46,777 bases of DNA, taken from contig JANLXT010000059.1 of the NCBI GenBank assembly GCA_031365225.1, positions 1-46,777 on the forward strand. Direction: 5' to 3'. A program made the translations under genes and the position numbers. Below the pieces are notes generated by a model, which did no database searches, was not told where the DNA came from, and was given only the letters and a program-made list of their open reading frames with translations. The DNA is from a candidate division FCPU426 bacterium. Lineage in GTDB: Bacteria > Oederibacteriota > JAJYGY01 > DAIDJD01. This document shows positions 13,970-33,403 of this stretch, in pieces (the first letter of the stretch is position 1; the number at the start of each line of letters is the position of its first letter).

Positions 13970-14044
13970 TCCCTGATAGCTCAATGGTGGAGCATTCGAC
14001 TGTTAATCGAAGGGTTCCTGGTTCGAGTCCAGGTCAGGGAGCCA
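13970..14044 (+). tRNA. tRNA-Asn (anticodon GTT)
   Basis: Acceptor TCCCTGA/TCAGGGA plus G-CCA, D-arm GCTC/GAGC, anticodon arm TTCGA-CTGTTAA-TCGAA, T-arm CCTGG-TTCGAGT-CCAGG. Confidence 0.97.
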
Positions 14045-15573
14045 ATCTGTGACAATAGGAGAACTTCGTGCAAACGGGGTTCTCCTTTGTCATTTTTAAG
14101 GGGTAGGGTGTATTCGATCTCGACCTGGGGCAGGCTGACGGTGATGCGTTTGACGAATGAGCGGATCAAGGCTTTGGTCTGAGACAGGCTGCCCTGTGCC
14201 AAGAGTTCTTTTAGCGCCCAGACGCGGTCTCGGATCTGAGTGGCGGTGTATTGCGAAGGGGCATGCTGGTATACCGCTAATTCACGCTGCTTGGGCAGCA
14301 GCGCCTCGATTTCTTCGTTAAGGCCGCTCAGGCGTGGTCTGACTTCGCCAGGTTCCATTTGACTGGTCTCGAGTAGATCCATGAGTTTTGCCTTGCGGTT
14401 GTTTAGGTCCTGCATTTTTCCAGCCAGAGCGTCCTTTTCTTTTTCCCAAGTTGCCATATGTTCTTGATCGCGAATACGCAACAATTCTACGAGCTCTAAC
14501 AGGTTTTCTGGTGTTAGGACGTCCTCTTTCAGGCATTCGAGCACGGCTGTCTCAAATTTCTCTTTGGGCACTGGTAACGACCGGCATGCAGCGCTGCCCT
14601 TGGTCTTGTGGGCGCTGCATCCATAGTACTTATAGGTACCACCCTTGCCGGTGGCGGAAGTCATGGTCGCGCCGCATTCTGCACAACGCACCAATCCTGA
14701 TAAAAGATAAGGGCTTGCAACGCTGCGGGGGCTAAATTCTTTGGGCCTTCGATCGCCGAAGGTGGCCTTGATGGTCCGGTGCTGTTCCAAGCTTATGTAG
14801 GCAGCATGTGTGTCAGGGACCAAAGTGGGCTCGTGCTTGCTCAAGGTCCTGTTGTAGACGGTGTTGCCAGTGTACATAGAATTATTGAGAACACTGTAGA
14901 TGCTGGTCTTGCCCCATAGCTTTCCGCTCGCAGTCAGGAGACGAGCACCATTGAGAATTTTTGCGATCTCCATCCCGCCATGGCCCTGAAAAGAAAGGTC
15001 AAATATTTTTCGAACGGTGGATTCATGGACGGGGTCGATCACTAGCCTGCTGTGCTCCGTTTGGCCCTCTTTTACTTTGATGGCCTTGTACCCAAGCGGG
15101 GCTCTACCACCATAAAAGTAGCCTCGTTGGGCGGCTTCTTTCATCCCGCGCCGGGTGTCTTGAGCCAAATTGTCCGAATAGAACTCATCCATGCTCTCGA
15201 TTATGCCTTCAAGGAGCCTTCCTGACGGCGAGTCCTCGACTTTCTCGTTCAACGAAAAGACCTGAACGCCAGCCTTCCGCAACAATGATTTGTAGACGAT
15301 AGAATCTTCGCGATTCCGCGCAAAACGCGAGAATTTCCAAACGATGATGACATCCACGATCTTGGGCTTCTGCTTTGCCAGCGTGATCATGTTCTTAAAA
15401 TCTGGCCTACGGGTGGTCTTGCCGCTCAAGGCCTCATCGACGAACTCTTGCACGACCTGCCAGCCAGATTTTTCAGCATGTTCACGCATGGCCCTAAGCT
15501 GGCTGGGAATGGACAGGTCTTTTTCAGCCTGCTGATCGGACGAAACTCGGGCATAAAGGACGGCGCGCATCAT
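13981..15573 (-). CDS. Large serine recombinase (integrase)
   Basis: YARVSS catalytic Ser, SRFARN, recombinase domain, YLLSGLVRCAECG..YYGC..C zinc ribbon, coiled coil; 3' end overlaps the tRNA antisense. Confidence 0.93.
   Translation of the reverse strand: MMRAVLYARVSSDQQAEKDLSIPSQLRAMREHAEKSGWQVVQEFVDEALSGKTTRRPDFKNMITLAKQKPKIVDVIIVWKFSRFARNREDSIVYKSLLRKAGVQVFSLNEKVEDSPSGRLLEGIIESMDEFYSDNLAQDTRRGMKEAAQRGYFYGGRAPLGYKAIKVKEGQTEHSRLVIDPVHESTVRKIFDLSFQGHGGMEIAKILNGARLLTASGKLWGKTSIYSVLNNSMYTGNTVYNRTLSKHEPTLVPDTHAAYISLEQHRTIKATFGDRRPKEFSPRSVASPYLLSGLVRCAECGATMTSATGKGGTYKYYGCSAHKTKGSAACRSLPVPKEKFETAVLECLKEDVLTPENLLELVELLRIRDQEHMATWEKEKDALAGKMQDLNNRKAKLMDLLETSQMEPGEVRPRLSGLNEEIEALLPKQRELAVYQHAPSQYTATQIRDRVWALKELLAQGSLSQTKALIRSFVKRITVSLPQVEIEYTLPLKNDKGEPRLHEVLLLSQIGSLTWTRTRNPSINSRMLHH
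14034..14091 (+). repeat. Left att direct repeat (58 bp)
   Basis: TCAGGGAGCCAATCTGTGACAATAGGAGAACTTCGTGCAAACGGGGTTCTCCTTTGTC, identical to 36970-37027. Confidence 0.92.
14051..14097 (+). terminator. Putative tRNA terminator hairpin inside the att repeat
   Basis: GACAA.AGGAGAAC.../...GTTCTCCT.TTGTC stem with GCAA loop, followed by ATTTTT in this copy only. Confidence 0.55.
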
Positions 15574-15983
15574 GGCTTTTTTCTCTTTTTGGGTTTTTCA
15601 GGTTTTCGGTAGGTGCGGGTCTTCAAGTCCCAGCCGTCGATGTTGATCTCGTCAAATGGCTTTTGGGCATATTTGACAACTTTTAAGATGCTCTGGCGCA
15701 TCTCGGGGGTCAGGCGTTGATAGTACTTGAGCAACTCTTCAACCTCTTGCCTTGGCACCATGATTTTGACGCCCAGCTTGTTTTCTTTTTCAAAGAGGTA
15801 ATCGGGGGTCACTCCCAGCACCTCTGCTATCAGGGCCAGTGACTTGGCATTGACCGTTTCCATCTTTCCTTTCTCTAGGCGTGAGATGGTGGCCTGAGTC
15901 AAACCGCAAGAATCCGCCAACACAAATTGGGGCATCTGCAATTGAGTTCGTAGACGTTTGATCACTTCCCCGATCTTCGCCAT
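15570..15983 (-). CDS. XRE-family HTH repressor
   Basis: IKRLR..Q..LA..GLTQATISRLEKG HTH; its stop overlaps the recombinase start (ATGA). Confidence 0.88.
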   Translation of the reverse strand: MAKIGEVIKRLRTQLQMPQFVLADSCGLTQATISRLEKGKMETVNAKSLALIAEVLGVTPDYLFEKENKLGVKIMVPRQEVEELLKYYQRLTPEMRQSILKVVKYAQKPFDEINIDGWDLKTRTYRKPEKPKKRKKP

Positions 15984-17958: not shown

Positions 17959-18195
17959 GTGCAGCCAGAAAAAGCGTTCGGCCTTGTGTTAGCTGAAACA
18001 CGCAAGAAAAGAGGCGTTTCTCAAGAAGAGCTCGCAGAGATCGCGGGACTGGACCGCACTTTTATCTCGTTGCTTGAGCGAGGCAAGCGTCAGCCGTCCT
18101 TGACCAGCATGCTGACTTTGGCAAAAGCTTTGAATATCAAACCAGATAAGTTGTTGTTAGCAGTGACTAAGCTCTTGGACAAGCGCGCGGCTTGA
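17959..18195 (+). CDS. XRE HTH protein resembling restriction-modification controller (C) proteins
   Basis: FG..L...R...G.SQE.LA..AGLDRTFISLLERGKRQPSL; AGGAGG SD before GTG. Confidence 0.88.
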   Translation: MQPEKAFGLVLAETRKKRGVSQEELAEIAGLDRTFISLLERGKRQPSLTSMLTLAKALNIKPDKLLLAVTKLLDKRAA

Positions 18196-18362: not shown

Positions 18363-21300
18363 TTGCCAAGTCAAATTTGCCACGGGGACTCAGTGAAATT
18401 AATTTCGAAAACGCATTTATGGCATCAAACAATTAGATCGATTGCTACTTTGGTGCGTGATGCCGTTTGTCCAATTATTAATACGTCAAAATGCTTCTTG
18501 CTCGGCATCTTTCTTCTAAGCTCCTCCGCCCACGCCATCGATTGGCCTTTTTTCAAAGCTGATGCTGCACGTAGTGGGACCACGACGGACACCGTCCTTG
18601 GCCCTGGCCTTGAGCTCAAGTGGATGGGCAAGGCAGGCGATGCTGGCATCGTCAGTTATTCGTCCCCGATTGTTGCGGGCGACCAGGCCTTTATCTCCCA
18701 TAGCAATGGCCTCGTGACCGCGTTTGACCTTAGCCCCAACTTTGCGGTTCAAAGCGACGGCAGTGCTTTGCCCACGTTCTATGCACCCACCAAAAGTGCG
18801 GCCAAGGCCTGGCAATTCAGGACCAATGGATCGGTGTATTCGAGCCCGGCGTTTGCGGTGTCAAATTTTGTACGGCGAGTTTTTGTCGGGACAACGTCGG
18901 GTACGGTCTATGCGCTTAAAGCCAATGCGGTGGATCCGCAGGGCGAACAGCTTTGGCGAGCAGACCTAGGCGGCGCTTTCTTTGCCTCGCCCATCGTTGC
19001 GGATGTGACAGGTGTTGGTCCAACGCTCTTTGTGGCGGCAGTCACGGGGGATGTCTATGCGCTCAACGCAATTGATGGCAGCGTGCGTTGGAAGATCGCC
19101 ATGCCAGGTCAAGTGCTTGCCTCGCCGGTGTTTGACACGCCCAAGCAGCGGCTCTATCTCGTCGACATGCGTGGCAACATCAGGGCGTTTGTAGCGAGCA
19201 CTGGTGGGGTGTTATGGAACCGTGGTTCACAAAATAGCTTTCATGCAACTCCTGCTCTACAAGGGGATGTTCTCTATGTTGTTGGCAGAAATGGCATTGT
19301 TCGCTCGATTGATGCTAGCGCCCTCATTTATCCCGCAGAACGAAATATCTTCAGCACCCTCACGCTACCCACAGGGATAGTCTCTTCGCCAGCAATCACA
19401 AGCTATTTAGGCAAGCCTCGATTGCTGGTCCTAACCCATGACGGCACACTTCGAGCCATTGACGCCAATGTTGGCGGCGGTGGTTTGACTGCGGCTTGGA
19501 CATTGGCCCCTAAAATTGTAGACGCAGGCGGAACCGCGAGTGTGAGTATCGCTGGTACTCGAGCCTATGTGGGCACGCAAGATGGTACCTTGCGCATGAT
19601 CGATGTCGCTGATGGAGCGGTACGCTTTGAGCAAAAATTAGCAGGCGGTGCCGAGATCGCGCCTGCAGTGGCGCAAAGCAGTTTGCTTGTGGCAAGCAAC
19701 GATGGCGCATTGCGGGCCTATGGCATGCCGATCAGTAGCATCCGGGTCTCTGGTCAATCAACGGTAGCGGCAGGGTTGTCTAATTCTTATGTCTTCGAAG
19801 CCCTCGACGCAGCAGGCAATGTGGTCCCAACAGCGGCGGGCCCCGCGTCGGTTACGACGAGCCTTTTGCCGGGCCAGAATCAGTTGCAAGTCGTGTCCAC
19901 GGGCCCGCTCAACGCAGGCCGGGGAACGATGACACTTGTGCGTAGCCCTGGCAACTATTTGGTCAAGGTCAGTGTGGTGGTTGCGGGCAAGACGTACATA
20001 GGGGCTTTGACGGTGCTCTTTGTTGGCGCGAGCCCAACACCTACGCCTTCGCCATCGATAACGCCTAGCGATACCCTGACGCCAACGGCCACCGCGACTG
20101 CGACTGAGTCGGTGACGCCAACGCTCACTCAAACGAGCACCTTCACGACCACCGAGACGGTGTCCGCTACTTACACCAGCACGCCGACTGCAACCTCGAC
20201 GTCCGTGCCCACGCCCGGGACTGATAACGGTTTTACTTATTATTGGTTCATCAAAGTTCAGAATCGGACCGGACTGACCTATGACAACACCACGGTTCAG
20301 CTTTCGGATGGAACGGGATTCGTGGATTTAGCTTCGCGCATCGCCGATAACAAAATCGAGAGCGATGGCAGTGACATACGTATTGTGGATGACCAAGGGG
20401 TGCAGGTACCGTTTGATTTGGTCAACGACCCCAACCACACAAATGCGATCTTGCGATTTAAGGTCAGCCATCTGGATCCAAGCCAAGAAAAAATCTATCG
20501 CATGGATTTTGGAAAACCCGGGGTCGGTTTCCCCGCAGGATATGGGACCACCGCTTATCTCGAGCAAGTCTATGGTATCGCCGATAGCTTTGAGGGAACC
20601 GCGATTGAAGGGGCTAAGTGGACCGTGAATTCTGGTGCACCGGTAGTCGGGGGCGGCCAACTGTCCGTCGATTTGCCCTTTGACATTCAGACGCTGGCGA
20701 CGCTGGACACTTCGTATGGTGGCCGCTATGAATTCACCGGCAATGGCGGAAATAGTGAACCGTATTTGGGTGGTCAATTTAATTGGCAGATGTTGCAAGA
20801 CAGCTCCCATTACGTAAGGGGGTATAGAAACCGTCTTTCGGGCATTGGCTTTGAAGTGAGCAACCTTGTTAATCAGATGCTCCCGGCGCAACCGCCAACA
20901 CCCTTTGGCGGCATTGTCAAATGGGCGGTTATCAGCAATGGCGGGCGTTATGGTGTCACTAAGGATGATGGGGCCAATGATTTCTATTGGGGCGTCTTTG
21001 TCAACCGGCCAAATCCTTTAGTCATCGGCCAGACTAAATTCAGCGCTTTCGGTACATTAGATGCCGGTGTCTCGGCAACAGCAATATTCCAAAAAATAGT
21101 AGCTTATGCGGTTCGTGATAACGGGCCGACCGCCACGTTGTTGGGCGACCACCCCGTTATTTTTGATGGTCCAGTGACCAATGATCCGGTGCCTGAGACA
21201 CATTGGAATCAAGCTTCGCACGAAGAGAAGCTTCCACTTGTACAGGTACCAACCAATCAGGTGGTCCTCAAAGGGTTCCCGCGTCCAAGTGATCTGCTTG

Positions 21301-22403
21301 TGTCGCAGGGTTCGCTGTGGGTTGTGGATCAGCAAAATGCGCATGTGCGGCGCTTTGACCGACTTTCGTTGAATCCAACAGGGGTCTTTAGCCAAAATCT
21401 AGTCGCGCCCGAAGCGTTGGCGTGGGATGCGCTGCATCAATGGATCTGGATCGCTGATCCTGGTGCGCATCGCGTTGTGGCAATGGACCTAGATGGTAGT
21501 TTAGTGCGAACGATTAGCCAGCGTGGTAGCGAACCTCTGATTTTGCCTAGTGGAGTGGCAGTGGATACCAATGGGTTGGTTTATGTGGTTGATCGCCAGG
21601 CCGCGACCTTGTCCTGCTATCACGCGGACGGCTCTTATTATTGGTCGCGTGGCGCTCTCGGTTATGAAGCCAATCGCTTTGCCAGCCCGTCACGAGTCGC
21701 TGTGGGCAAGAACGGTATGGTGCATGTCAGTGACCCAGGTAATCAGCGTGTGGCTAGCTGGGATAAAAATGGCTATCCCATCCGTCAGTTGCCGCGTCTA
21801 TCAGCGATGGCTTTCAATGTGGACACGCCAGTCGGCTTGGCGGTTGATGCCAAAGAACGCCTTTGGTTTGTCGACGCGGCTAAGGGCCGGTTGGTCTGCA
21901 ATGATGCTAACGGCCAGCTTTTAGGCGTTGGTGTTGAGCACGCATTCACTGAGCCTGCAGGTATTTTTGTTGAAGAGGATGGCACAACGTGGGTCGCGGA
22001 TCGCGGCAAGGGCGAGGTGGTTGGCTTTAGGGATGGCCAAGCACCCACCAATCCCTCGGCTGGTGACGTGGTAGCTTCGTCACGGCGAGATTCAAAAGAG
22101 TTGACACCAGCCAAGCATTGGTTGCCACAGGAAGTAAAATTCTTGGTCGCTCCTAACCCTGCCAAACGCGATGTGGTGATCGGGATTCGATTGGCGCAAA
22201 GCGCCAAGGTCACAGTGTTCGTCTCAAATATCGCAGGCGAGACCCCCTATTCCATCGATCTGGGCACTTTGCCAGCGGGGGAGAGCGTGGTCCAAGCACT
22301 CTTGCCCAATCTTGCGTCAGGAATTTATCTGCTGTCTGCCCAAGTTGAGGGCCCCTATGGTCCCAAGATCTTGGCGACTCAAAAAGTGGCGGTGCTGCGA
22401 TGA
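18363..22403 (+). CDS. Large secreted protein: PQQ-like beta-propeller, Thr/Pro linker, DUF2341-like, NHL repeats, T9SS-CTD-like tail
   Basis: AHA/IDWPFF..RSG after a signal peptide; SSP and YAL..G..W repeats; DGSDIRIVD; P.GVAVD..G.VYV.D repeats; APNP..LASGIY..KVAVLR; true start probably downstream of 18363. Confidence 0.85.
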   Translation: MPSQICHGDSVKLISKTHLWHQTIRSIATLVRDAVCPIINTSKCFLLGIFLLSSSAHAIDWPFFKADAARSGTTTDTVLGPGLELKWMGKAGDAGIVSYSSPIVAGDQAFISHSNGLVTAFDLSPNFAVQSDGSALPTFYAPTKSAAKAWQFRTNGSVYSSPAFAVSNFVRRVFVGTTSGTVYALKANAVDPQGEQLWRADLGGAFFASPIVADVTGVGPTLFVAAVTGDVYALNAIDGSVRWKIAMPGQVLASPVFDTPKQRLYLVDMRGNIRAFVASTGGVLWNRGSQNSFHATPALQGDVLYVVGRNGIVRSIDASALIYPAERNIFSTLTLPTGIVSSPAITSYLGKPRLLVLTHDGTLRAIDANVGGGGLTAAWTLAPKIVDAGGTASVSIAGTRAYVGTQDGTLRMIDVADGAVRFEQKLAGGAEIAPAVAQSSLLVASNDGALRAYGMPISSIRVSGQSTVAAGLSNSYVFEALDAAGNVVPTAAGPASVTTSLLPGQNQLQVVSTGPLNAGRGTMTLVRSPGNYLVKVSVVVAGKTYIGALTVLFVGASPTPTPSPSITPSDTLTPTATATATESVTPTLTQTSTFTTTETVSATYTSTPTATSTSVPTPGTDNGFTYYWFIKVQNRTGLTYDNTTVQLSDGTGFVDLASRIADNKIESDGSDIRIVDDQGVQVPFDLVNDPNHTNAILRFKVSHLDPSQEKIYRMDFGKPGVGFPAGYGTTAYLEQVYGIADSFEGTAIEGAKWTVNSGAPVVGGGQLSVDLPFDIQTLATLDTSYGGRYEFTGNGGNSEPYLGGQFNWQMLQDSSHYVRGYRNRLSGIGFEVSNLVNQMLPAQPPTPFGGIVKWAVISNGGRYGVTKDDGANDFYWGVFVNRPNPLVIGQTKFSAFGTLDAGVSATAIFQKIVAYAVRDNGPTATLLGDHPVIFDGPVTNDPVPETHWNQASHEEKLPLVQVPTNQVVLKGFPRPSDLLVSQGSLWVVDQQNAHVRRFDRLSLNPTGVFSQNLVAPEALAWDALHQWIWIADPGAHRVVAMDLDGSLVRTISQRGSEPLILPSGVAVDTNGLVYVVDRQAATLSCYHADGSYYWSRGALGYEANRFASPSRVAVGKNGMVHVSDPGNQRVASWDKNGYPIRQLPRLSAMAFNVDTPVGLAVDAKERLWFVDAAKGRLVCNDANGQLLGVGVEHAFTEPAGIFVEEDGTTWVADRGKGEVVGFRDGQAPTNPSAGDVVASSRRDSKELTPAKHWLPQEVKFLVAPNPAKRDVVIGIRLAQSAKVTVFVSNIAGETPYSIDLGTLPAGESVVQALLPNLASGIYLLSAQVEGPYGPKILATQKVAVLR
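20031..20222 (+). repeat. Low-complexity Thr/Pro/Ser linker-coding region
   Basis: Translates SPTPTPSPSITPSDTLTPTATATATES...TPGT. Confidence 0.8.
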
Positions 22404-23167
22404 GGTTGAAACGCTTTTACTTCCTCACTGTGGTGTTTGCTTGCGCACCAAGATTAGTTTGGGCAGGCGCACCTATACCCTCTGACACAAGCGGTCCAGT
22501 TTTGCAATGGCGAGTGGGCCAGGCGGTAAACTACCGAATGACAATTAAGGCACCCGGATTTGAAGATCAAGTTCGCAATACCAGATACGCTATTGTAAAA
22601 AAAGAAGATTCAGGCCAATTTTGGTTTGAAGTCAGTCAAACTAATCTCGCCGGGTCAAATATTCTGACAATTTCACGACTTGTCACGCCCACGACTGAAA
22701 CGACACTTCTAGGATCATTGATTTTCGATGGGATAGAATCTTTTGCAGCAAGTCGTGTTTTACAAAAAATTGGGAATCAAAACCCGGCGGAGCTTGCCCC
22801 TGAAATGTTTCCGCAAGGGAAAACAGCTAGCGGGATCAATGGCCTATACCAATCATTTGCAACTACCGGCAACGGATTGGTCACGACGGCAGCAGGGGCT
22901 TTTCAAGTGGTGACAATGACGGCGACATTTCATCAAAGTGCACAACCAAGTCAGCCCCCACGGAACCCTAACGCCATCGTATTAGTTCTAAGTCAGGGCG
23001 TGCCTGTTCGAGGTATTGTTCGTTACAGCTTTCCGCTCCCGCCTGATTTTTCTAGCAACGTCACAAGAACTGTCATGGTAGAAATAGATTCTATTGAGTA
23101 TTCGGCCAGTACGCGTATTTCTGGTACGCCTAGTCGCCTTCTTCCTTTTACAACACCGTCACGATGA
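22400..23167 (+). CDS. Hypothetical exported protein
   Basis: ATGA overlap with the upstream gene; signal peptide; beta-rich; V.TAAGAF motif. Confidence 0.7.
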   Translation: MRLKRFYFLTVVFACAPRLVWAGAPIPSDTSGPVLQWRVGQAVNYRMTIKAPGFEDQVRNTRYAIVKKEDSGQFWFEVSQTNLAGSNILTISRLVTPTTETTLLGSLIFDGIESFAASRVLQKIGNQNPAELAPEMFPQGKTASGINGLYQSFATTGNGLVTTAAGAFQVVTMTATFHQSAQPSQPPRNPNAIVLVLSQGVPVRGIVRYSFPLPPDFSSNVTRTVMVEIDSIEYSASTRISGTPSRLLPFTTPSR

Positions 23168-23228
23168 AGTTGCTGTACGTATTAGAATGTGTCGCGCTAT
23201 CTACGATGGCAAATCAAATGGTGCATCG

Positions 23229-26200
23229 ATGATTTTTTTAAAATTTTGCAAGAACATTCAAATTTTGAGAGAAACGAGCTATCTCGAATCCAGACTTCTG
23301 TCTTTTCTTTTATTTCTTTCACTAAACGTGCAACTTGGTCACGCACTTGCAGCTTCAGACCCATGCCCAAATGGTTGCGGTGGCGTCATTATAAGCGGTG
23401 GTGGTGGGGGTAGCGGGGGACCCACGGGTCAGCCAGCTAAGCCGGGACCGACACCCAAAACGAAAACCGATCCTCGGCTAGCGCCCTCAAAGCAACCGTG
23501 TTCTGGAGATCCAGTATCAACTGCGGACGGTACTAACTATTTCTCGGTTTCAGATTTTGACTACGCACGCGTGGCTCCGAGTTTCCCTTTGCGCTTTAGG
23601 CGTTTCTACCAAAATGGATTTTCAAGTGTTGCGGGAGAGCTTGGCGAAGGTTGGACTCATGATTATTCGACTGCATTCATTTTTGATGAAGAAAAAAATG
23701 AATATATTATGTTAGGCTCAGAAACTGGTGGTAAATTTTATGTTGATTTGACAAGCGCAGACCCCAGTTATTTGAAAGCACAGGAGGGACTATTCGCTTC
23801 GGCACGCCTTTTGCCTGCTGGAGAGATTGTAAATGGACAATGTCGTACGAACTCAAGCCCGCCAAGTTTATATACATGCAATTATGGAGAAGACTTCGTC
23901 CGAAACCTACTCTCGACACTTAACTATAACTTACCCGCCGAAATAGCTGGTTTGCTAGAAAGAGAATCCTATTACGGCGGATTGATATATACCGACAAAT
24001 TTGGAAAGGTGACATATTTTATTGCGTTAGCTCCAGGAGCGCCAAACGTCTTTGTGCCAGTATTGGAGGTCGATCGGTGGGGCAATCGCTTAAGCTATGA
24101 ATATGAATCGTACATAAGGCATCCTGGTTTTAGCTCATATTCAACCGCTTGCAATGGGGAATTTTGTGTTCCCCATATTGGTGGGAGCAATGCAATATTC
24201 GATTTACGCTTGCAACAAGTGAGTTCCTTTCCCAAGGGCAGAGATGTTGCCGATTGGCAGATTCAGTTTGAATACAAAGTGTCAAACTCGGTTCGGGATG
24301 ATCGCTATGGCTACAAGATTACGGCTGTTACAAATAGCCTTGGCGAGCGAATAGGGTTTAGTTATCTTTATAGTGAACAATTGAGTCAATATGGCCCTGA
24401 AATAATATTTGATAGTCGACCTATTATTTCTGCAATCAGGTCGGATGGCACATCAGCTAGCTACAGCTACTTTAGCCAAGATGAGCCTCTATTAGTCGCA
24501 AAAAAAGACTCGAAGGCAGAGCCGAGCGGAAGGAATTTTTCCTATGCCGTTGAGTCTTTTAGTGGAGTGGCACGGGGCACAACAAACGTAATAGATGGAA
24601 ACGGAAATTTGACAACTGAGATTGGTTTGCCATGGTCAAGTATCATTTCGAAATCTTACCCCTATGACGTTGTTACAAAAGACCATCTCGGACGCACGAC
24701 GCGCATTGATACCTATGGTTTGCAAAACCAATTACCCTATTCTGGTAACATAATTCCCATAGATGCCCCTCTTTGCCTTTCGAGCCACATTTTTTTGACA
24801 TCGGCAAATTCGTTTATCAGACGCTATGGTTATAACCAAGATGGGCTTTTGGTTGAGGAGCTCAACGATTACACCGGAATCGCCTTGCTGATGTCCTATG
24901 ACGCAAAAGGCAACTTGATCGCCCGTCAAAATACGTTCAATCAAGGTGTTGGCATCCCCGCGGAGTCTTGGACCTACGACCCGTTGAGTCGGCCATTGAG
25001 CTACGTCGATAAAAATGGTCGAACAACCTCCTATGTCTATGGGGATGGACTTAATCTTACCGAGATAAATCGCCCCCTGGGGTGGAAGAACACTTTTTTA
25101 TATGACCCCTTTGGCAAACTCATCGAGTCGATAGACGCCAATGGGCATAGAACAAAGGTTAGCTATGACGCGGCTGGCCATCTTCAGCGTTCTCAAGGTC
25201 CCGATCTTTCTATCCCGGCGACCCAGTATATCTTTGACCCCAAGGGTCGGCTCGAGTCTCAGACAGATGCTTTGGGCGCAACTATTCGTAATACTTGGAC
25301 AATCGACGGGCTCTTGGCGAGCGCCACGCTGGCAGACGGCAGTAGTGTCGTTTTTACTTACGACGCTATGCGTAATTTGATTAATAGCAAGGATGCGAAC
25401 GGGACTATCACACAGAATTTTTATGATAATTCAAATAACCTTATTCAAGTAGATTCTGCCAGCAACCGCCCGGACGCAATCAGCCAGCACTTTGAATATG
25501 ACCCTCAGAGGAACTGTACAGCTGTCATTGATGGTGCTGGCAAGAGGACAAGTTTCACCTTCAACTTGCAGGGCCTGCTTGCGAGTAGCAGTGATCCCTT
25601 GGGTAAGGGGGGAGACCTTCGTTACGATTCCAACTTAAAGCCCATCAGAAAAACGGATACCCGCGGCGTAGTCAGGACGTACACCTATTTCGGAAACGGC
25701 CGATTGAAGAAAATTAGTTTCTCGGGGGCCCCACTATCCAATCCGGCACAGCCTGTCGAGTTTACCTATGACGGAAACGGCAATCGCATTTCCATGACGG
25801 ATGGAATGGGAACGAAAACATATTCCCGCGATCTGCTTGATAGGCTGACGCACATTCACGATGCCGCGAGAAATTTTGATATTAACTACACGTTTGACTT
25901 GGTCGGCAATCGTACTGCGATGAACTATGTGATCCAAGGAAGCCTCATCGATAGCTTTGCCTACAATTTTGACGTGAGTGATCGCATGATTACAGTCACC
26001 GAGACGCGGACCGGCATGCCCTCTGAGGTTTCCGATTTCACCTATAACGCCATCAATCAAATTAGCAAGGTGCGCTATCCTAACGGAGTAGCTGAAGCTC
26101 GATATACGTATCACCCGGACAACCATCGCCTGATTGGGCAAACCAACGTCAATGAACGTGGAAGCGCACTCTCGCAATTTGACTATAGCTATGATTCTGC

Positions 26201-27497
26201 AGGGAATATCAAGACTGCCAAAGACCTTGCGGGTTTGAATATCTATAGCCTTGATTCAAAAAATCAACTTTTGGACTCCGCAACCTCAGCTGCGACAAAT
26301 AACCAAAGTTTCACCTACGATGAAGCCGGCAACCGCGTATCGTTGATCGAGTCATCGGGCAATACCTCTTACACCATCAACCAAGGCAACGAGGCTGTTG
26401 CGGTGGGTGGGCAAACAGTCACTTATGATCGGGCTGGGAATATGTTCTCGAAGAGCGGAGGGGCTGGAAGTCAGTATGGATGGGATAGCCTAAATCGTTT
26501 AGTGAAAGTAGAGAGCATCATCCCTATCCAGACCATTGCCACGTTCCAGTACGATGGCGATGGGATCCGGAGCAAAAAAGTCAATGGCGCAGGAAGTGCG
26601 ACAAATTATTTCTTCGATGGATTGCAGGTTTTGGCGGAGACAGATGCGAGCGGGATAATCAAAAAGACCTACAATCCTGGCATCTCGACCACGGATGATA
26701 AAGGCAACAAGTTTTACACGCTCGTCAACGGGCATGGGGATGTTGCGAACCTGATCGACCGTGACGGCAATATCGTGGATACCTATAGCTACGATGCCTT
26801 TGGTAAGACTATCGGGGTGGCGAAAAATTCAAACGGATTTAGATATGTGGGGCAATACGGGGTGCACAGTGACGACGACCTAGGCTTACAGTACATGTGG
26901 AATCGTTGGTATGACTCTGAGTTAGGGAGATTTATCAGCCGTGACCCTATCGGAATGGCTGGGGGATTGAACCTTTACGTATACACAGGAAATAATCCCG
27001 TGACTTATGTGGATTCGCTAGGATTGTGTGCCGATCCCAATGGTCCCGATCCTGGGTTTAACGGTCATAGTCATTGGGAGGGCTTGTTAATCGTTAGTGA
27101 CTCAAATAGCTCCGGAGACTCGGGTGGAGGCAGTGTCTTAGGCATTATTAGCTCGATTGTATCTTCGCCAGGAAATCCAAATGTACGACTTGGAATGATA
27201 CCATTTGGATTCGGGAGCCTTGGTGGCGTGGGTTTTTTTAGATCCTCAATACCTAAGTTGCCATTTAATAATAAAGTATTTGGGCAACTAATGAAGTGGG
27301 GTTCGAATAGTGCGACAGCAAGGGCTCAAATAGGAAATCTCTCTGCGGAAGTTTTGAGAAAAGCCGGGATGACTAGTAATATGGCAGAGGAATGGGCTGC
27401 ATTTTACAGAAACGAGTCACTTTTGGTACCGAGAAATCCTTCTGCGGCAGGTCGTGCAGAGTTACTGGAGGACGTAGCAAAAATGCTGCGCCAATAA
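23229..27497 (+). CDS. RHS/YD-repeat polymorphic toxin with DUF6531-like N-domain
   Basis: GDPV..ADG..RRFY..LGEGWTHDY (DUF6531-like), many YD repeats, core RWYDSELGRFISRDPIG..NLYVYTGNNPVTYVDSLGL, then a variable C-terminus; start taken as the ATG at 23229. Confidence 0.92.
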   Translation: MIFLKFCKNIQILRETSYLESRLLSFLLFLSLNVQLGHALAASDPCPNGCGGVIISGGGGGSGGPTGQPAKPGPTPKTKTDPRLAPSKQPCSGDPVSTADGTNYFSVSDFDYARVAPSFPLRFRRFYQNGFSSVAGELGEGWTHDYSTAFIFDEEKNEYIMLGSETGGKFYVDLTSADPSYLKAQEGLFASARLLPAGEIVNGQCRTNSSPPSLYTCNYGEDFVRNLLSTLNYNLPAEIAGLLERESYYGGLIYTDKFGKVTYFIALAPGAPNVFVPVLEVDRWGNRLSYEYESYIRHPGFSSYSTACNGEFCVPHIGGSNAIFDLRLQQVSSFPKGRDVADWQIQFEYKVSNSVRDDRYGYKITAVTNSLGERIGFSYLYSEQLSQYGPEIIFDSRPIISAIRSDGTSASYSYFSQDEPLLVAKKDSKAEPSGRNFSYAVESFSGVARGTTNVIDGNGNLTTEIGLPWSSIISKSYPYDVVTKDHLGRTTRIDTYGLQNQLPYSGNIIPIDAPLCLSSHIFLTSANSFIRRYGYNQDGLLVEELNDYTGIALLMSYDAKGNLIARQNTFNQGVGIPAESWTYDPLSRPLSYVDKNGRTTSYVYGDGLNLTEINRPLGWKNTFLYDPFGKLIESIDANGHRTKVSYDAAGHLQRSQGPDLSIPATQYIFDPKGRLESQTDALGATIRNTWTIDGLLASATLADGSSVVFTYDAMRNLINSKDANGTITQNFYDNSNNLIQVDSASNRPDAISQHFEYDPQRNCTAVIDGAGKRTSFTFNLQGLLASSSDPLGKGGDLRYDSNLKPIRKTDTRGVVRTYTYFGNGRLKKISFSGAPLSNPAQPVEFTYDGNGNRISMTDGMGTKTYSRDLLDRLTHIHDAARNFDINYTFDLVGNRTAMNYVIQGSLIDSFAYNFDVSDRMITVTETRTGMPSEVSDFTYNAINQISKVRYPNGVAEARYTYHPDNHRLIGQTNVNERGSALSQFDYSYDSAGNIKTAKDLAGLNIYSLDSKNQLLDSATSAATNNQSFTYDEAGNRVSLIESSGNTSYTINQGNEAVAVGGQTVTYDRAGNMFSKSGGAGSQYGWDSLNRLVKVESIIPIQTIATFQYDGDGIRSKKVNGAGSATNYFFDGLQVLAETDASGIIKKTYNPGISTTDDKGNKFYTLVNGHGDVANLIDRDGNIVDTYSYDAFGKTIGVAKNSNGFRYVGQYGVHSDDDLGLQYMWNRWYDSELGRFISRDPIGMAGGLNLYVYTGNNPVTYVDSLGLCADPNGPDPGFNGHSHWEGLLIVSDSNSSGDSGGGSVLGIISSIVSSPGNPNVRLGMIPFGFGSLGGVGFFRSSIPKLPFNNKVFGQLMKWGSNSATARAQIGNLSAEVLRKAGMTSNMAEEWAAFYRNESLLVPRNPSAAGRAELLEDVAKMLRQ

Positions 27498-27498
27498 A

Positions 27499-27729
27499 AT
27501 GAAAAACAGTCGCATAGACATTCAAAATTGCGGAACCAGCGAATTGATTTTGTTCATTGAGCCATGGGGAATAGATTACGCAGTGAAGCCAAAGGAATCA
27601 ATTGAAATTCTTTTTATTGGAGCAGAAGAGGGTACCGTGATGGTTGAGCATTTTCCTTCGAGAATAGTAGTATATGGATGGGCAGAAACTAACCTTGAAG
27701 TTCGACAAAATGGGGTACTTCTAAATTGA
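27499..27729 (+). CDS. Putative immunity protein of the RHS toxin
   Basis: 76-aa ORF starting 1 nt after the toxin stop; EPWG motif. Confidence 0.7.
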   Translation: MKNSRIDIQNCGTSELILFIEPWGIDYAVKPKESIEILFIGAEEGTVMVEHFPSRIVVYGWAETNLEVRQNGVLLN

Positions 27730-27820: not shown

Positions 27821-29193
27821 GGTTATGCAACATTTTTTGGTGTAAATTCCACCAGGGCGTAGAGCTGGCAAGTGCGGCCTAGAGGGCCGCGCTCATGTGT
27901 TTGGCGCCGTGAATGCGTTTGGTTTCCCAACGGCGCTGATGTTCGATGGAGATGGACCAGACTAGCTTCCAGACCTCTCCCTCAGCTTGCATGGCACCAG
28001 CGGGCCTCAGCCGCCGGCGCAGTTCGCGGTTAAATCGTTCGATTAAGTTGCTCGATCGTAGAGTGCTCCAGATGGCCTTGTCTTCGTTCATAAAGGTCAA
28101 GAAGCGCTCAGGATCGGCGCAGGTTAGCTCGACAGCCTTGGGATAGAACCTCTTCCAGCGACTTTGTAGCTGACCAAGAGCGATGTACGCCGACTCACGA
28201 TTCGGTGCCCAGAATATCTTTTTAAAATCCGCCATAAATTCTTTTTGGTCTTTGCCGGCAATTCGAACTCGAACGTTGTGCATCTTGTGAACAATACAAA
28301 GTTGGTGAGGCACGGCCAGCAGCTTCGAAACTGCAGCTCCGATGGCTTTGTGGTCGTCTGAGATGGCGAGCTTGATCTTTGAGGTGTCGAGTCCACGCGC
28401 TTTTAATTCTTTGATGAACGCCGACCACGAATCCTCAGACTCTCGATCACCGAGCAAAAAACCCAAGACGTGGCGTTTGCCATCAGGCGTGATGCCAATC
28501 GCCGCCAATATGGCCTGTTTGGCAGTGAACTTAGAGACCCGAACAGGTAAGTAGAGGGCATCTAAGAACAGATAGGCGATCTCGTCGGTGATAGGTCTGC
28601 CAAGCCAAGCCAGCGCTTCGGGAATGAGCTTGTTCGTGAGCACAGAGACGTCAGCGGATCGAAGCTTGGTACCAAAGGCAGAGTTGAGCTCTTGAGCCAC
28701 CGCTCTTGTGGATGTACCGCGTAGCCAGAAACGTGTCGCAAGAATACCAGCTAGATTCTTGCCAGTGCGCTTCAAGCTCTCTAAAAAGGGTGACGGTGGG
28801 TTTGCTCCGCGTAGCACTGGACGACGGAGCGTGACCGAGCTAAAGATGCCTTTAAGCCTAAAGGGCTTGTAGCCATTGCGGGACAGGGACGCGGTATCGC
28901 TGCGTTCGTGAAAATCCCGTCCCAACAGGTCAGTCTGCTCCGATAAAAGACTCCGATTTAAAGAGTCTGCCAAGGCCGCATGCATCTCAGATTCGACCAG
29001 GGCCATGACTAGACCAGGATCAAGCTCTTGTTGGATCTTGGCACGGATAAATTTACGAGTTTGCTGAGCCAGGTTTTGTGATACGCTTTTCATGGGCGTA
29101 GATCTCCGTAAAAGGGGACTGGGGTTGTGGTAAACACCAGACTACGCCCTTTTCTATTTAAACGGAACTTACACCTAGTTTTGTAGCACAACC
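27821..29193 (-). mobile_element. IS256-family insertion sequence
   Basis: Imperfect 30-bp terminal IRs (GGTTATGCAACATTTTTTGGTGTAAATTCC vs reverse complement of 29164-29193, 22/30 matches) around a transposase; no target duplication seen. Confidence 0.85.
27879..29093 (-). CDS. IS256 (mutator-type) DDE transposase
   Basis: YLFLDA, ISDD, QLCIVH, SNLIERFNRELRRR motifs. Confidence 0.92.
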   Translation of the reverse strand: MKSVSQNLAQQTRKFIRAKIQQELDPGLVMALVESEMHAALADSLNRSLLSEQTDLLGRDFHERSDTASLSRNGYKPFRLKGIFSSVTLRRPVLRGANPPSPFLESLKRTGKNLAGILATRFWLRGTSTRAVAQELNSAFGTKLRSADVSVLTNKLIPEALAWLGRPITDEIAYLFLDALYLPVRVSKFTAKQAILAAIGITPDGKRHVLGFLLGDRESEDSWSAFIKELKARGLDTSKIKLAISDDHKAIGAAVSKLLAVPHQLCIVHKMHNVRVRIAGKDQKEFMADFKKIFWAPNRESAYIALGQLQSRWKRFYPKAVELTCADPERFLTFMNEDKAIWSTLRSSNLIERFNRELRRRLRPAGAMQAEGEVWKLVWSISIEHQRRWETKRIHGAKHMSAAL

Positions 29194-29952
29194 TTGCAAG
29201 GCAAGATGGTCACGTTGGTGTTTGAGGGATTGATCCCAGTAGGGAAGGGTTATCTGGAACGAATCGGTTTTTTTGATGCCGACAAGCTGCATCCTTCCAT
29301 TGAGGTCTTACCCTATCGGTTTCGAGGGATGTCTTCGGCTATTCTTCATGACGGTCAGAGCGACAACCTGGTCGAGATACAACCTATCCGACTGGCTGAT
29401 TCCGACTGTATTGAATTTCAACCCATACCGAGTCGAATCGGTGATCGCGTACAAAAGGCCTATGATGGGCATGAACAGCAGGGGAGCGTGACTAGTTCGT
29501 GTTTCACATTGGTCGCGGAGCTTGGACAAAACATCATCCATCACAGTAATTCTGTGACGGATGGGTATGCCTCGTATCAACGGTTCCCAGCAAAAAATAC
29601 ATTTAAAGTTGCCGTCTCCGACTGCGGGGATGGAATCCTCGCCACGATCCGCCCGGCACTGGTTGAACAACGGCACAAGGATTTGTCGGACAGCAAACTG
29701 CTTCTCGAGATGCTCAATAGCGGGAAGCTGTCCCGTCTTAATGACGGTGGAGGCTCCGGACTATATTCATGTGCTAAAAATGCCTTGGCTTTTAAGGCGC
29801 AGATGTGGCTCCGGCTTCCGACCTGCAGTGCTTTCCTTCGGCCGGTCGGCCGAGCTGGCCAGCAATATGGCTTGGTCGACTTCGATGAAGGGGTCCCCTT
29901 TTTCCCGGGCACCCATGTTTCCTTCAGATACATCTTGACGCCGGCGACTTAA
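29194..29952 (+). pseudogene. Anti-sigma-type (GHKL/HATPase) kinase, probably 5'-truncated by IS256
   Basis: Frame is open from the IS end; N-box ELGQNIIHHS, G1 DCGDGI, G2 GGSGL; partial STAS-like N-part (GYLERIGFFD); could still be translated from the ATG at 29206. Confidence 0.7.
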
Positions 29953-29971
29953 TCTGCTTTACTTCATATCA

Positions 29972-30520
29972 ATGAAGCAGACGCCTACGATACAATTAAG
30001 ATCCTGCATGGACTCTGAGGTAGGGCTTAGCCGTCCAATGGGGGCCAAGTGTTACAAGCGCCTCAAGGCTGAAGTAGAGGCCAGAGGGGACGAAGACCTG
30101 TTCCGTGTATCGTTGCAAGGCGTGAAACAGACAGATACGTCCTTTCCAAAGCATGGCTTGCTGGCCTTGGCCAAGGAACTTAGAGGCAAGAAGGCGTTTT
30201 GTTTAGCTGATGCTTTCGATCAGGAGTTTCTAGAAAACTGGGGAGACGCGGCTGATGTAGCAGAGTTCCCCTTGATCGCCTGGGGTGCAAAGAGCTACAA
30301 GCTCCTAGGGCCAAAACCGGGTGGTGGTCTTGCTGAAGTGTTCGAGTTCGTGATGGGGCGAGAGGCAACTGGCGCCGCCGACCTAAAGCAAAAGTTCGGG
30401 TTCCAAGTTCCAAATGCGAGCAACAAGCTGAAAAAGCTCTTTGATCAGGGGTACGTGTGGAGACGTGTTCGCGTAGCAGGGTCCGGAGGCATAGAGCATG
30501 ACTACTTGGCCATAAAATGA
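29972..30520 (+). CDS. STAS-like + winged-HTH DNA-binding protein
   Basis: SLQGVKQTDTSF (STAS phospho-Ser-like motif, Ser57); C-terminal ADL..FG..VPNASNKLKKLFDQGYVWR wHTH. Confidence 0.75.
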   Translation: MKQTPTIQLRSCMDSEVGLSRPMGAKCYKRLKAEVEARGDEDLFRVSLQGVKQTDTSFPKHGLLALAKELRGKKAFCLADAFDQEFLENWGDAADVAEFPLIAWGAKSYKLLGPKPGGGLAEVFEFVMGREATGAADLKQKFGFQVPNASNKLKKLFDQGYVWRRVRVAGSGGIEHDYLAIK

Positions 30521-30613: not shown

Positions 30614-31534
30614 ATGCGAAATATGACTGCTGAAACTGAAAATCTTGCCCTACCCAAGGGTATCCATCGGAGCCGTGCTCTTCCAGATGCGACTCTCGGA
30701 ACCCTTTGGGATTCGATCTTCCTCGACGAGCGGCTGAAGTCTCAACTTTTGTCACAAGCGATGTTGAACTTCACGCTTCGAGGCAAGGTTGCACGTAGCG
30801 TGATTCCATTGCACGGGGTCATCCTATTGGTCGGCCCTCCGGGCACAGGTAAGACGTCCCTCGCCCTGGGCCTAGCTAGTCGTACCGCTGAGTCGTTCAA
30901 GAGCGGCAAATTCCGCCTGCTCGAGGTTGAACCTCATATGTTGACCAGTTCAGCAATGGGCAAAACCCAGCGTGCTGTCTCAGACCTGTTCTCTCAGGCG
31001 ATAGCCGAGTCCGCTGCAAATGGGCCTACCATTGTGCTGCTCGATGAAGTTGAAACACTGGCGGCCGATCGTTCGAAGATGAGCTTAGAGGCAAACCCAG
31101 TCGATATTCATCGTGCGACCGATGCCGTATTGGTGCAGCTCGATGCTTTGGCGGAGCGGTATCCGAACCTTCTCTTCGTCGCCACCAGCAATTTCCCTCA
31201 AGCGGTCGACAGCGCGTTTACCTCTCGTTGCGATCTTGTTATGGAGATCCCGTTGCCAGATCGCCAGGCATGCAGCCAGATCTTGAAGGATTGCCTGATA
31301 GGTCTTGGCAAGGTATATCCCGCCATCGCCAAGCTGGCGATCTCTTCACAATTTGAACACTGCGCGGAAGCTTGTGTAGGGATTGATGGAAGGGCCATAC
31401 GAAAGATGGTGGCCAACGCACTCGCCAGCAGTCCCAAGACCGCGATGAATCCAGAACAGGTTTCAATCGAGAACCTGTTAGCCGCTGCCAAAACCGCAAA
31501 GGCAAGTCGCATTCCTGAAGGGAAAAGTAAATGA
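30614..31534 (+). CDS. cap6: CBASS TRIP13/Pch2-like AAA+ ATPase
   Basis: GPPGTGKT, LLDEVE, TSN, D.AF.SR.D motifs; adjacent to HORMA genes. Confidence 0.9.
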   Translation: MRNMTAETENLALPKGIHRSRALPDATLGTLWDSIFLDERLKSQLLSQAMLNFTLRGKVARSVIPLHGVILLVGPPGTGKTSLALGLASRTAESFKSGKFRLLEVEPHMLTSSAMGKTQRAVSDLFSQAIAESAANGPTIVLLDEVETLAADRSKMSLEANPVDIHRATDAVLVQLDALAERYPNLLFVATSNFPQAVDSAFTSRCDLVMEIPLPDRQACSQILKDCLIGLGKVYPAIAKLAISSQFEHCAEACVGIDGRAIRKMVANALASSPKTAMNPEQVSIENLLAAAKTAKASRIPEGKSK

Positions 31535-32007
31535 GTACCGTCGCCAGTCGCACGTTCCGGAGCAGCCCGCAGCGGGATGCGTTGCAAACTTGGACTGCGA
31601 TAGTTGAATTACTAACGCAGGGCAAGTCTAGCGTTGCTCGAACTGAATTGCTGGCGATTGGCGGAATAGCAGCAACATTAATCGCCGATCGAACCCCAAA
31701 AGATGAGGCGATAGTCGTTATTTGTGACGGTCCACGCACTCGGCTCTATTGTCTATATGACGATGAAGCTATTGAGGGATCTGATGCCAGCGAAGATGCG
31801 CTGGGTTTTGATCCTTTGAAAGGGGACTGGAACGTCTCCCTGCCTTGTGCAGCGGCCGATGTCAAATGGGTGCAAGCCGCACTCAAGAAGCATAGCAGAC
31901 GCATTGTTGCGCGTGAGAGCGGAGCGGATGTAAAGACGGCGGAAAGCAAGAACGTGTCGAAGGCTGAAGACCTCATTTTTGATCCGAAAGGGTTCCTCAA
32001 ATCATGA
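31531..32007 (+). CDS. cap8: CBASS HORMA3 protein
   Basis: [39 protein letters not shown], recognised as close to Pseudomonas HORMA3. Confidence 0.88.
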
Positions 32008-32504
32008 GCAATGTCACAGTCAATACCTACACCCACTCCGTCGTCTATGTTGCGAACAATATTCTCAAGAGCCTGAAGGATATTATTGTTCTCAGTGGCC
32101 TTGATCCTGCAAATCTTGTGGATGATTGGGCATGTAAGATGCGCGGACTTCAGACGTGGCTCACCTCGCAGCATCTAGAGCGGGTGATCCTTGAGGTCTT
32201 TGATCCCAAAACCGACGCGTTGGTCGGACGATGGGATATTGATGTCGTGTACACGATGGGCTCAGGTGACGGGGGATTCTGGACTGACACGGACCAAATC
32301 AAATATCACATTGGCAAAGCAGGACTAGTGCCAAGCGCAGCTCGCTATCGGATTTTGCTTCAGAACAAGCCTGGACGCCCAGATGTCGAAGGATGGGGAC
32401 CTGCTGAGTACAGGTCCACTGAAGGGTTTGTCCGTCAAAGTCTAGGCACTACGATTGAGCATAACGGGTTGGGCGGAAGCGCCGCTTATTGGAGGAAAAG
32501 CTAG
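32004..32504 (+). CDS. cap7: CBASS HORMA2 protein
   Basis: [35 protein letters not shown], recognised as close to Pseudomonas HORMA2. Confidence 0.88.
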
Positions 32505-33403
32505 TGTTAACCATCGACGATGCCTTTCGCAAGTTCAAGAGCCGGCTCGAGCTCAATGAGCGGGAGCAAAAGAACGCGTCCGCCCGGCAAACTGAGGTGC
32601 GGGAATATCTCGAAACAAAATTCTCAATCGAGCGCAGTTTTCTAACCGGGTCCTACGCTCGGCACACCAAAACGAAGCCTCTCAAAGACATCGACATCTT
32701 TTTCGTGATGAGCGAGTCTGAAAAGAAGTACCGGTCCAAAGCACCTTCGGTGGTGATCGGTGAATATTTTAAAGCCCTGGTTGCTAAGTATGGCGAAAAG
32801 GCCGTGCGCAAGCAAAGCCGGTCGGTCAATGTCGACTTTGGAATTGTAGCCGATGTAGACGATAATACTGACTACCGGGTGCTCAGTGTTGACGTCGTGC
32901 CGGCCTTTGAAGATGGGAAAAATTACGAGATACCTGACGACGATATCGGGAAGTGGATCAAAACGAATCCCGAGATTCATGCGGACAAGGCGACTGCGGC
33001 GCATCAGGCCTTTTCCGGTGAATGGAAGGGTTTGGTGCGAATGGTCAAATATTGGAATAACAATGCAAAGCACGGAGAAAAGCCGGTAAAACCCTCTTTC
33101 CTTATCGAGGTCATGGCTCTCCAGTGTTTGCATGGCGACTGGCAGGGTCGCTTTGACTATGAGATGCAGGCGTTTTTTTCCACCTTGGCTGATCGGATTT
33201 TAGATGAGTGGCCAGATCCCGCTGGACTAGGGCCTCCGATTAGCGCGGGGATGGATGCTACTCGCAAAGCGCGGGCTCAAAGCTTTCTTTCGGCAGCAAG
33301 TAGGGAGGCAACCATCGCTATAAATCATGCGCGCCAAGGGCGCACTGGCGAGGCTTTGACAGCTTGGCGTACATTGTTTGGATCTAAGTTCCCGCTCTCC
33401 TAG
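32504..33403 (+). CDS. cdnD: CD-NTase (CdnD-like cyclic oligonucleotide synthase)
   Basis: [16 protein letters not shown] nucleotidyltransferase motif, [15 protein letters not shown]; GTG start at 32504 after GGAGG. Confidence 0.92.

Follow-up and report, generated by a model that had tools for sequence, protein, structure and literature searches.

A conserved, lineage-restricted accessory gene set beside a Sec-type RHS toxin in a candidate-phylum bacterium

Introduction

WapA of Gram-positive bacteria is the studied example of a rearrangement hotspot (RHS) toxin that depends on the Sec pathway, and in the Tc (ABC) toxins the TcB propeller and the TcC RHS cocoon dock on TcA. Sec-dependent ('T2SS/Sec') RHS toxins are a recognised class, and Table 1 of Zhang et al. 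(2012, PMC3482391) gives no signature neighbour gene for them; the TcdB/TcaC route is listed in the same table. Bacterial teneurin-like proteins (TLPs), found in six phyla other than the one studied here, are single chains with Sec signal, NHL propeller and YD shell, and the account given of them leaves their delivery unexplained (PMC13018210). Here we analyse a stretch of 46,777 nucleotides (nt), called the window, which is one whole contig (JANLXT010000059.1, or C247) of the draft genome G000 (2.82 Mb, 346 contigs, 97.99% complete, 56% G+C) of an uncultured, diderm sediment bacterium from a small candidate phylum. It encodes a signal-peptide RHS toxin directly preceded by the genes of a small exported protein and a giant multi-propeller protein. 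The linkage of these three genes is well supported, and the two beside the RHS gene make up a real and conserved accessory set, restricted to this lineage, for a toxin of a known kind. Tentatively, we read the locus as an RHS polymorphic-toxin operon independent of a type VI secretion system (T6SS), in which a LolA-like escort and a propeller protein with a type IX secretion system (T9SS) tail would aid delivery.

Results

The list of open reading frames (ORFs) agrees with an earlier note on this DNA, made from the letters alone, in giving four co-directional genes on the forward strand. They encode a giant multi-propeller protein (gene 1, P0001; 18363..22403; 1346 amino acids (aa) as listed), a 255-aa exported protein (gene 2, P0002; 22400..23167), the RHS toxin (gene 3; listed ORF of 1467 aa at 23094-27497) and a 76-aa protein in the immunity position (gene 4, P0004; 27499..27729). 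The same note had set co-occurrence of the genes elsewhere, beforehand, as the test on which its proposal should stand or fall. Run on 99 species genomes of the phylum (labels of the form G0xx denote its genomes, L0xx loci or contigs) and on metagenome contigs, the test was passed. Seven loci could be assessed, namely the window, a second copy in the same genome found by BLAST on contig C154 (= L001), G019, G055 (= L019, counted once), G069, L022 and L021, while the L020 contig ends inside the small gene. The small gene lies directly 5' of a signal-peptide RHS gene in six of the seven (window, C154, G019, G055/L019, G069, L022), and a PQQ/NHL giant adjoins in at least four of those six (window, C154, G019, G055/L019). 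A scan of the phylum with the family hidden Markov model (HMM) placed members only directly upstream of signal-peptide RHS genes (window, C154, G019, G055, G069). Signal peptides were judged by a hydrophobicity scan and by eye, with no trained predictor, and by this heuristic all nine RHS proteins, five small proteins and nine giant proteins examined have a hydrophobic N-terminus.

The arrangement varies from locus to locus. On C154 the order is argF, a PQQ/NHL protein, a PMT_2-type membrane protein, a 257-aa exported protein and a signal-peptide DUF6531 RHS gene cut by the contig end. The C154 propeller is 83-84% identical to gene 1 over the N-terminal 524 residues and the C-terminal tail, and the 257-aa protein of this locus is a further member of gene 2's family (E 2e-10 to P0007, 2e-4 to P0002). 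In G019 the small gene and the RHS gene come first, followed by a PQQ/NHL/Kelch/malectin protein of roughly 3450 aa. G055 has the same order with a small gene frameshifted in the assembly (L008 11473-12355); L019, 99.8% identical to G055 over 18.4 kb, carries an intact 286-aa small gene (10001-10861). G069 has the small gene and then the RHS gene, and L022 the end of an upstream protein, the small gene and a signal-peptide RHS gene. Small-gene stop and RHS start overlap by 4 nt in C154, G019 and G069.

Several side observations concern these loci. In C154 the propeller gene (L001 2966-6527, minus strand) is broken up into frames of 956 aa and 283 aa that overlap at 3657-3817. This is either an assembly error or a pseudogene; contigs of the only DNA run leave L001 3785-3941 unbridged. 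The PMT_2 (protein O-mannosyltransferase-like) protein, a 489-aa multi-pass membrane protein at L001 1500-2969 on the minus strand, stands between the propeller and the small gene, and the Thr/Pro-rich linkers of propeller proteins and RHS N-termini could be glycosylated. The L021 family member has as neighbours ORFs of 624 aa (with a hydrophobic segment), 176 aa and 248 aa (multi-pass membrane) and the gene of an isocitrate/isopropylmalate dehydrogenase.

The two loci of G000 differ greatly in how far their parts have diverged. Identity is 83-86% between the propeller N-termini, but only 22-24% between the small proteins and about 25% between the RHS N-termini. The small protein thus diverges with the RHS protein and not with the propeller, and its fixed position 5' of the RHS gene together with this co-divergence suggests that the RHS protein is its specific partner.

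The pairing of RHS and propeller also extends beyond the small family. RHS and a PQQ-type giant are adjacent, with no small-family gene, in G004, G015 and G026. They are adjacent in G066 as well, where the RHS start is off the contig, so that the small family is not assessable. Apart from a partial hit of 39 residues and 6.2 bits in a 310-aa ORF of G066, which was discounted, candidate upstream ORFs of G015, G026, G066 and G004 did not match the family HMM, and a later scan with that HMM recovered none of them. In G015 an unrelated 232-aa exported protein, among the ORFs so compared, occupies the small-gene position with a 4-nt overlap and may be an analogue of the small family. At least 7 of the 38 places with DUF6531 share a contig with a close propeller-profile match, many contigs being too short to judge. 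The propeller N-termini are orthologous between bacterial families (25-27% identity), and orthologues adjoin RHS genes in G019, G055 and G004. A locus search with the propeller alignment (A3) returned just two distant, unrelated loci, in a Euryarchaeota and a Verrucomicrobia metagenome-assembled genome.

These data bear directly on a simpler explanation, in which the LolA-like protein and the RHS protein form a two-gene unit and the PQQ/NHL giant is an independent adhesin or glycan-binding protein, brought near by the clustering of secreted genes in islands. The propeller gene comes first in family f1 and last in f9, the PMT_2 gene is inserted between propeller and small gene in C154, and the PQQ orthologue of G069 sits on a different contig. 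Propellers of the PQQ type are in any case widespread in the phylum, with a match at E <= 1e-10 in 65 of the 99 genomes, and the G000 copies are near-identical while their RHS and small-protein pairs are far diverged. Yet adjacency survives rearrangement across f1, f4 and f9, and the propeller stop overlaps the next start by 4 nt in the window and in G004. A propeller is even fused to the RHS protein ahead of DUF6531 in two genomes, as PQQ_2 in G015 (L012 4146-9548) and as Kelch in G026 (L011 6223-11295). We regard this two-gene explanation as possible but rather unlikely.

Most of what the earlier note had read from the individual genes stands. For gene 1 it had described a signal peptide, a PQQ-like propeller, a Thr/Pro stalk, a DUF2341-like domain, an NHL propeller and a CTD-like tail. 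The propellers are clear (PQQ_2, E 2.8e-27; Beta-prop_ACSF4, 3e-28; NHL, 3.7e-11), and a Thr/Pro stretch at about residues 560-625 of the translation and a signal-like N-terminus are seen, but DUF2341 (E 5e-4, 20.9 bits, cut-off 23.4) and the tail stay below cut-offs. The order is signal peptide, PQQ/ACSF4-like propeller, Ig-like segment, Thr/Pro linker, weak DUF2341, NHL propeller and T9SS-type tail. A match to TEN_NHL reaches 23.8 bits, below the cut-off of 27.1. The N-terminal hydrophobic segment ends in AHA, with cleavage after AHA at residue 58 of the listed ORF. The listed TTG start is probably too far upstream, the most likely true start being GTG 18393 or TTG/GTG 18450/18453. Gene 2 is, as claimed, an exported and translationally coupled gene of no named family: its start overlaps the gene 1 stop by 4 nt (ATGA), its hydrophobic N-terminus ends VWA|G, and Pfam and NCBIfam gave no match, including none to a Pfam LolA-type family at the sequence level. 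In gene 3 every N-terminal feature named before is present, a hydrophobic leader ending ALA|A, CPNGC, a Gly/Pro linker and then DUF6531 (residues 138-201 of the listed ORF). Its listed TTG start is again probably too far upstream, the most likely start being ATG 23229 (MIFLKF...). The small ORF of gene 4 was also found, 1 base after the RHS stop, without a signal peptide and with no Pfam or NCBIfam family; position is what makes it a candidate immunity protein.

The tail of gene 1 scores under the cut-offs for Por_Secre_tail (E 0.0048, 17.6-20.5 bits; cut-off 27) and for TIGR04183 (21.7 bits; cut-off 23). Three other G000 ORFs matching the tail family have C-termini that can be aligned to it at 28-32% identity; two of these ORFs pass the Por_Secre_tail cut-off, the third (C134, 20.4 bits) being below it. 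The G004 orthologue of gene 1 scores above it (27.8-32 bits). Matches to Por_Secre_tail, FlgD_ig or CHU_C, of 16 to 32 bits, were present at all six giant-protein C-termini examined, the G015 match lying about 90 residues short of the C-terminus and not at the very end. Judged by these similarities, the gene 1 tail is probably homologous to T9SS-type sorting domains. Across G000, Por_Secre_tail has 17 matches (7 over cut-off) and PorV_fam 28 (15 over cut-off), and a SprA-like 2188-aa ORF matches in four stretches, none of which (91.6, 63, 35.8 and 31.6 bits) reaches the cut-off of 200 bits. As a side observation, several copies of the expanded PorV family (e.g. on C229, C335, C100, C279 and C96) adjoin T9SS-tail ORFs, as if there were one barrel per cargo.

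The body of the RHS protein is of the usual kind. It matches RHS_repeat (PF05593, E 8.9e-46), TIGR01643 (E 3.4e-35) and Rhs_assc_core (TIGR03696) at residues 1233-1311 with 78.8 bits (cut-off 32.5), and a Pfam scan of the protein gave no PAAR, SpvB or NHL match. The core ends in ...YVDSLGL, where DPxGL is usual. The 156 residues that follow hold a Gly-rich hydrophobic stretch and then DUF4951 at 1383-1463 (45.4 bits, cut-off 27.3). DUF4951 matches an uncharacterised nuclear magnetic resonance structure, 2mmb (E 5.5e-6), and three stand-alone 93-aa proteins; a literature search for DUF4951 returned no paper. Several related RHS C-termini look membrane-active or wall-active. They are Gly-rich and hydrophobic, by eye and composition, in G019, G055, G069 and G026, and in G015 there is a weak M15/VanY peptidase match (E 3.3e-4, under cut-off). 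Small two-helix membrane ORFs lie 3' of the RHS gene in G055 (71 aa, two hydrophobic helices) and G069 (114 aa). As a lead, C-termini of the membrane or wall type would need only envelope access and therefore fit delivery from outside. Separately, further RHS C-terminal pieces occur in G000 on contigs C345, C163 and C232, two at contig ends and one internal. They are 51-63% identical to the core end of the window RHS, each with another tail, and probably represent orphan toxin cassettes or the end that the C154 RHS lacks.

Such toxin ends would equally suit an RHS protein that stays in the periplasm or envelope, with no outer-membrane route at all. It would be released passively through vesicles or lysis, or act as a teneurin-like contact protein, and the LolA-like protein would only stabilise or solubilise it. 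The RHS protein has only a Sec-type signal and no sorting tail, as such a protein would, and bacterial TLPs likewise have Sec signals and, as far as the account of them goes, no known delivery machinery (PMC13018210). What this leaves unexplained is the linkage, across families, of a tail-bearing propeller gene to the RHS gene, and we consider the explanation distinctly unlikely.

Gene 2 is, by sequence comparison, the founder of a very rare new family. A word-seeded protein search returned the query alone, while an exhaustive phmmer search over 1.84 billion representatives found three further clusters, P0005 (47% identity), P0007 and P0006. The last, an 807-aa metagenome protein, carries the family domain in three tandem copies, which match with E 2e-31, 1e-22 and 5e-30 and follow a hydrophobic N-terminus. 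Locus searches of genome and metagenome contigs with a first family alignment (A1) gave nothing; with a narrower one (A6), four metagenome loci were found (L019, L020, L021, L022). A structure model of P0002 from a 5-row alignment was weak, with a predicted local distance difference test score (pLDDT) of 55 and a predicted template modelling score (pTM) of 0.59. The G019 member (P0014), from a 9-row alignment, gave a better one (pLDDT 76.3, pTM 0.71) with 11-12 strands and two short helices. With both models, Foldseek and an independent structure aligner returned a common set comprising 4fvs, 2yzy, YmcC-like proteins, LolA, LolB, LppX, LprG, RseB, MucB, ependymin and VioE. For the G019-member model the Z scores were 11.5 for 2yzy (root-mean-square deviation 3.6, 150 aligned), 10.2 for EPD-BCP1, 9.3 for 4fvs, 9.2 for MucB and 9.0-9.2 for LolA, and Foldseek E values ranged from 1e-5 to 1e-3, the top match being 4fvs (E 9.9e-6). 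Chain A of 9jg8, a cargo complex of a Bacteroides T6SS, was a weaker structural match (Z 5.1; E 1.9e-3 in Foldseek). An ESM Atlas feature search with P0002 found unnamed clusters only, with recognition under the tool's mark. From the models and their moderate scores, the family is predicted to be an open beta-barrel like LolA, LolB, LppX and RseB, a superfamily marked by an unclosed antiparallel barrel under a short helical lid. Proteins with this fold act as carriers of acyl chains or lipids, or hold partner peptides in a clamp. The predicted fold fits an escort role without proving it.

The same fold could serve a periplasmic self-protection factor, so that the 255-aa protein would be immunity-like rather than an escort. 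It is exported, RHS-specific and strongly diverged between paralogous loci, and the LolA-like folds RseB and MucB, to go by the titles of the structural matches, bind partner peptides. In G019 a 45-nt gap without an ORF separates the RHS gene from the next gene. Elsewhere, separate ORFs do occupy the immunity position, of 76 aa in the window, 71 aa in G055 and 114 aa in G069. The family is kept while the toxin C-termini vary (DUF4951, Gly-rich hydrophobic tails and others), and immunity genes are normally 3' of the toxin gene whereas the small gene is always 5'. This makes an immunity function improbable.

Searches for known delivery machines were negative. In G000 there was no match to TssC (PF05943), PAAR (PF05488), VgrG (Phage_GPD, PF05954) or Hcp (PF05638), none to the Eag-type DcrB/DUF1795 (PF08786), for which an E. 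coli control was positive, and none to WXG100 or SpvB. TcA (VRP1) had no match either, with a silent control. TssC is found in 0 of the 99 phylum genomes and DUF6531-RHS genes in 27, at 38 places in all, so the RHS toxins of this lineage appear to be T6SS-independent as a rule. The earlier note had seen no PAAR, VgrG, Eag chaperone or WXG gene in the window, which now extends to the whole genome and to Hcp, TssC and SpvB. Its statement on TcA and TcB carries over for the SpvB part, and for TcA with the limit of that control. Its proposal of a Sec-exported RHS protein without a T6SS adaptor is supported by the hydrophobicity heuristic and the phylum-wide lack of TssC matches. That the RHS protein nevertheless relies on some T6SS, Tc-type injector or type VII secretion system (T7SS) encoded elsewhere in the genome would need a cluster missing from the 346-contig draft, and with these markers not found at 97.99% completeness and an RHS protein lacking PAAR and SpvB domains, this is scarcely credible.

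The cluster lies in a mobile or variable island, because it is flanked by a large serine recombinase gene (13981-15573, minus strand) and a Mutator-family transposase gene (27879-29093, minus strand) and because the G+C of the RHS segment is 45-49% against 56% genome-wide. The upstream side also holds genes for two helix-turn-helix (HTH) proteins and a Sel1-repeat protein, the recombinase/HTH gene stretch being 13981-15983. Directly 5' of the cluster is the gene of a 78-aa XRE-type HTH protein (17959..18195, plus strand; HTH_3, E 7.8e-16), which from its position possibly regulates the cluster. A terminator scan placed the strongest hairpin of the region 3' of the last gene (27871..27893, plus strand; 10 pairs, 7 G-C), where it possibly marks the operon end. 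Overall, the promoter and terminator scan was no richer than in shuffled sequence (14 against 11.0 +/- 3.4; 12 against 11.1 +/- 3.5). Further downstream, beyond 29194-30520, lies an anti-phage operon of the cyclic-oligonucleotide-based anti-phage signalling system (CBASS) type at 30614-34967. It encodes an AAA+/TRIP13-like ATPase (30614-31534), then a 158-aa protein of no named kind, bacHORMA_2 (32004-32504, E 3.9e-85), a nucleotidyltransferase of the SMODS type (32489-33403) and, as the effector, a SAVED-domain protein (33453-34967).

Discussion

In the reading we tentatively favour, that of a T6SS-independent RHS operon with an escort and a tail-bearing propeller protein, Sec would move the RHS protein, the small protein and the propeller protein into the periplasm. 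There the LolA-like protein would escort its own RHS protein, or help it to assemble, in a pair-specific way. The propeller protein would be exported and held at the surface via a SprA/PorV-type pathway and supply adhesion or target recognition. The RHS protein would reach the surface with or through it and free its toxic C-terminus at a neighbour cell's envelope or into it, while the downstream immunity protein would shield the producer. The mechanism as a whole is a hypothesis, and so in particular are three of its parts, the small protein as RHS escort, the propeller as surface targeting part and the crossing of the outer membrane by the RHS. A more specific version proposes an undescribed outer-membrane route, in which the escort hands the RHS to the propeller and the complex leaves through the SprA/PorV-type translocon and stays as a surface contact weapon; we think this version unlikely. 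A complex prediction for RHS residues 42-780 with P0002 residues 23-255 (5-row alignment each) scored 0.00, which is no answer and counts neither way.

A number of points weigh against the favoured reading. No precedent for a T9SS cargo carrying a second protein was found in the literature searched, and an RHS cocoon would be a very large passenger. The signal peptides are judged by heuristic. The gene 1 tail is below its cut-offs. The core of PorU was not found in G000, where the PorU model matched only in its tail part, and GldL and GldM had no match, their controls being silent. The fold matches have low TM-scores (0.25-0.46), and their Z scores are only moderately above the tool's quoted background of 7-8. 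The PQQ orthologue of G069 is on a separate, 3.8-kb contig, and the L021 family member (2722-3639) has no RHS gene within its 11-kb contig. Finally, all genome loci come from one phylum and four further loci are unplaced metagenome contigs (L019 being of the G055 population). The loci are not independent samples, because the genomes are kin within one phylum.

The delivery of RHS and teneurin-like cocoon toxins with a Sec signal only is an open question, stated as such in a 2026 paper (PMC13018210). The module offers two concrete, conserved candidate partners, and because of these two genes the question becomes testable. It also introduces a new small family, predicted to be LolA-like in fold, for which RHS genes are the only context known, in a phylum that as a whole keeps RHS toxins without a T6SS. 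If the outer-membrane route were true, Sec-dependent RHS or teneurin-like toxins would have their first accessory machinery, and a T9SS cargo would for the first time be seen to take a second protein along. A published description of the gene set was not found in the parts of the literature consulted, on Rhs with type IX secretion, T6SS independence and LolA-like proteins.

Among described systems, the T6SS Rhs-Eag (DUF1795) pairs, as far as their description in PMC7773334 goes, share with this locus a small, dedicated and specific accessory gene directly 5' of its own Rhs gene. Unlike in those pairs, there is here no PAAR or prePAAR, T6SS or DUF1795, and the accessory protein is exported with a predicted LolA-like fold, so it would act in the periplasm and not in the cytoplasm. 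As in Tc toxins, an RHS cocoon would cooperate with a beta-propeller and with a large separate protein in contact with the target. However, the locus has no SpvB, no integrin-like propeller in the RHS and, within the limit of the silent control, no TcA (VRP1) match, and its propellers are of the PQQ/NHL type on a protein with a T9SS-type tail. Both comparisons are functional analogies only.

The likeness to bacterial TLPs is closer. A Sec signal, a YD shell around a polymorphic toxin, an association with NHL, presumed surface exposure and the lack of an obvious delivery machinery are common to both, going by the features reported for TLPs (PMC13018210). TLPs, in the same report, have FN-plug, NHL and YD shell in one polypeptide, most with a TIP domain, whereas here a separate protein bears the NHL/PQQ propellers and the RHS protein carries DUF6531 alone. 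The module thus resembles a split teneurin-like protein with extra parts, and departs from that group in not being a single polypeptide.

The closest relatives are the Sec-dependent RHS toxins. With these, as outlined in PMC3482391, our RHS protein shares a signal peptide as the sole trafficking signal, the RHS/YD shell with its core and a C-terminal toxin that varies, and in the immunity position there is again a small ORF. Because the Sec route for RHS toxins is already recognised in that work, the locus is a new accessory set for a known class and not a new class. The 'alternative delivery system' of the earlier note is accordingly narrowed: its T9SS-like tail and the lack of T6SS, Tc or T7SS markers in our searches speak for it, while the class of toxin is not new. 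Because the host is a diderm, the outer membrane is still to be crossed here. What sets this locus apart from the Sec-dependent toxins, as that classification presents them, is its two conserved accessory genes, one for an exported protein with a predicted LolA-like fold and one for a propeller protein with a T9SS-type tail.

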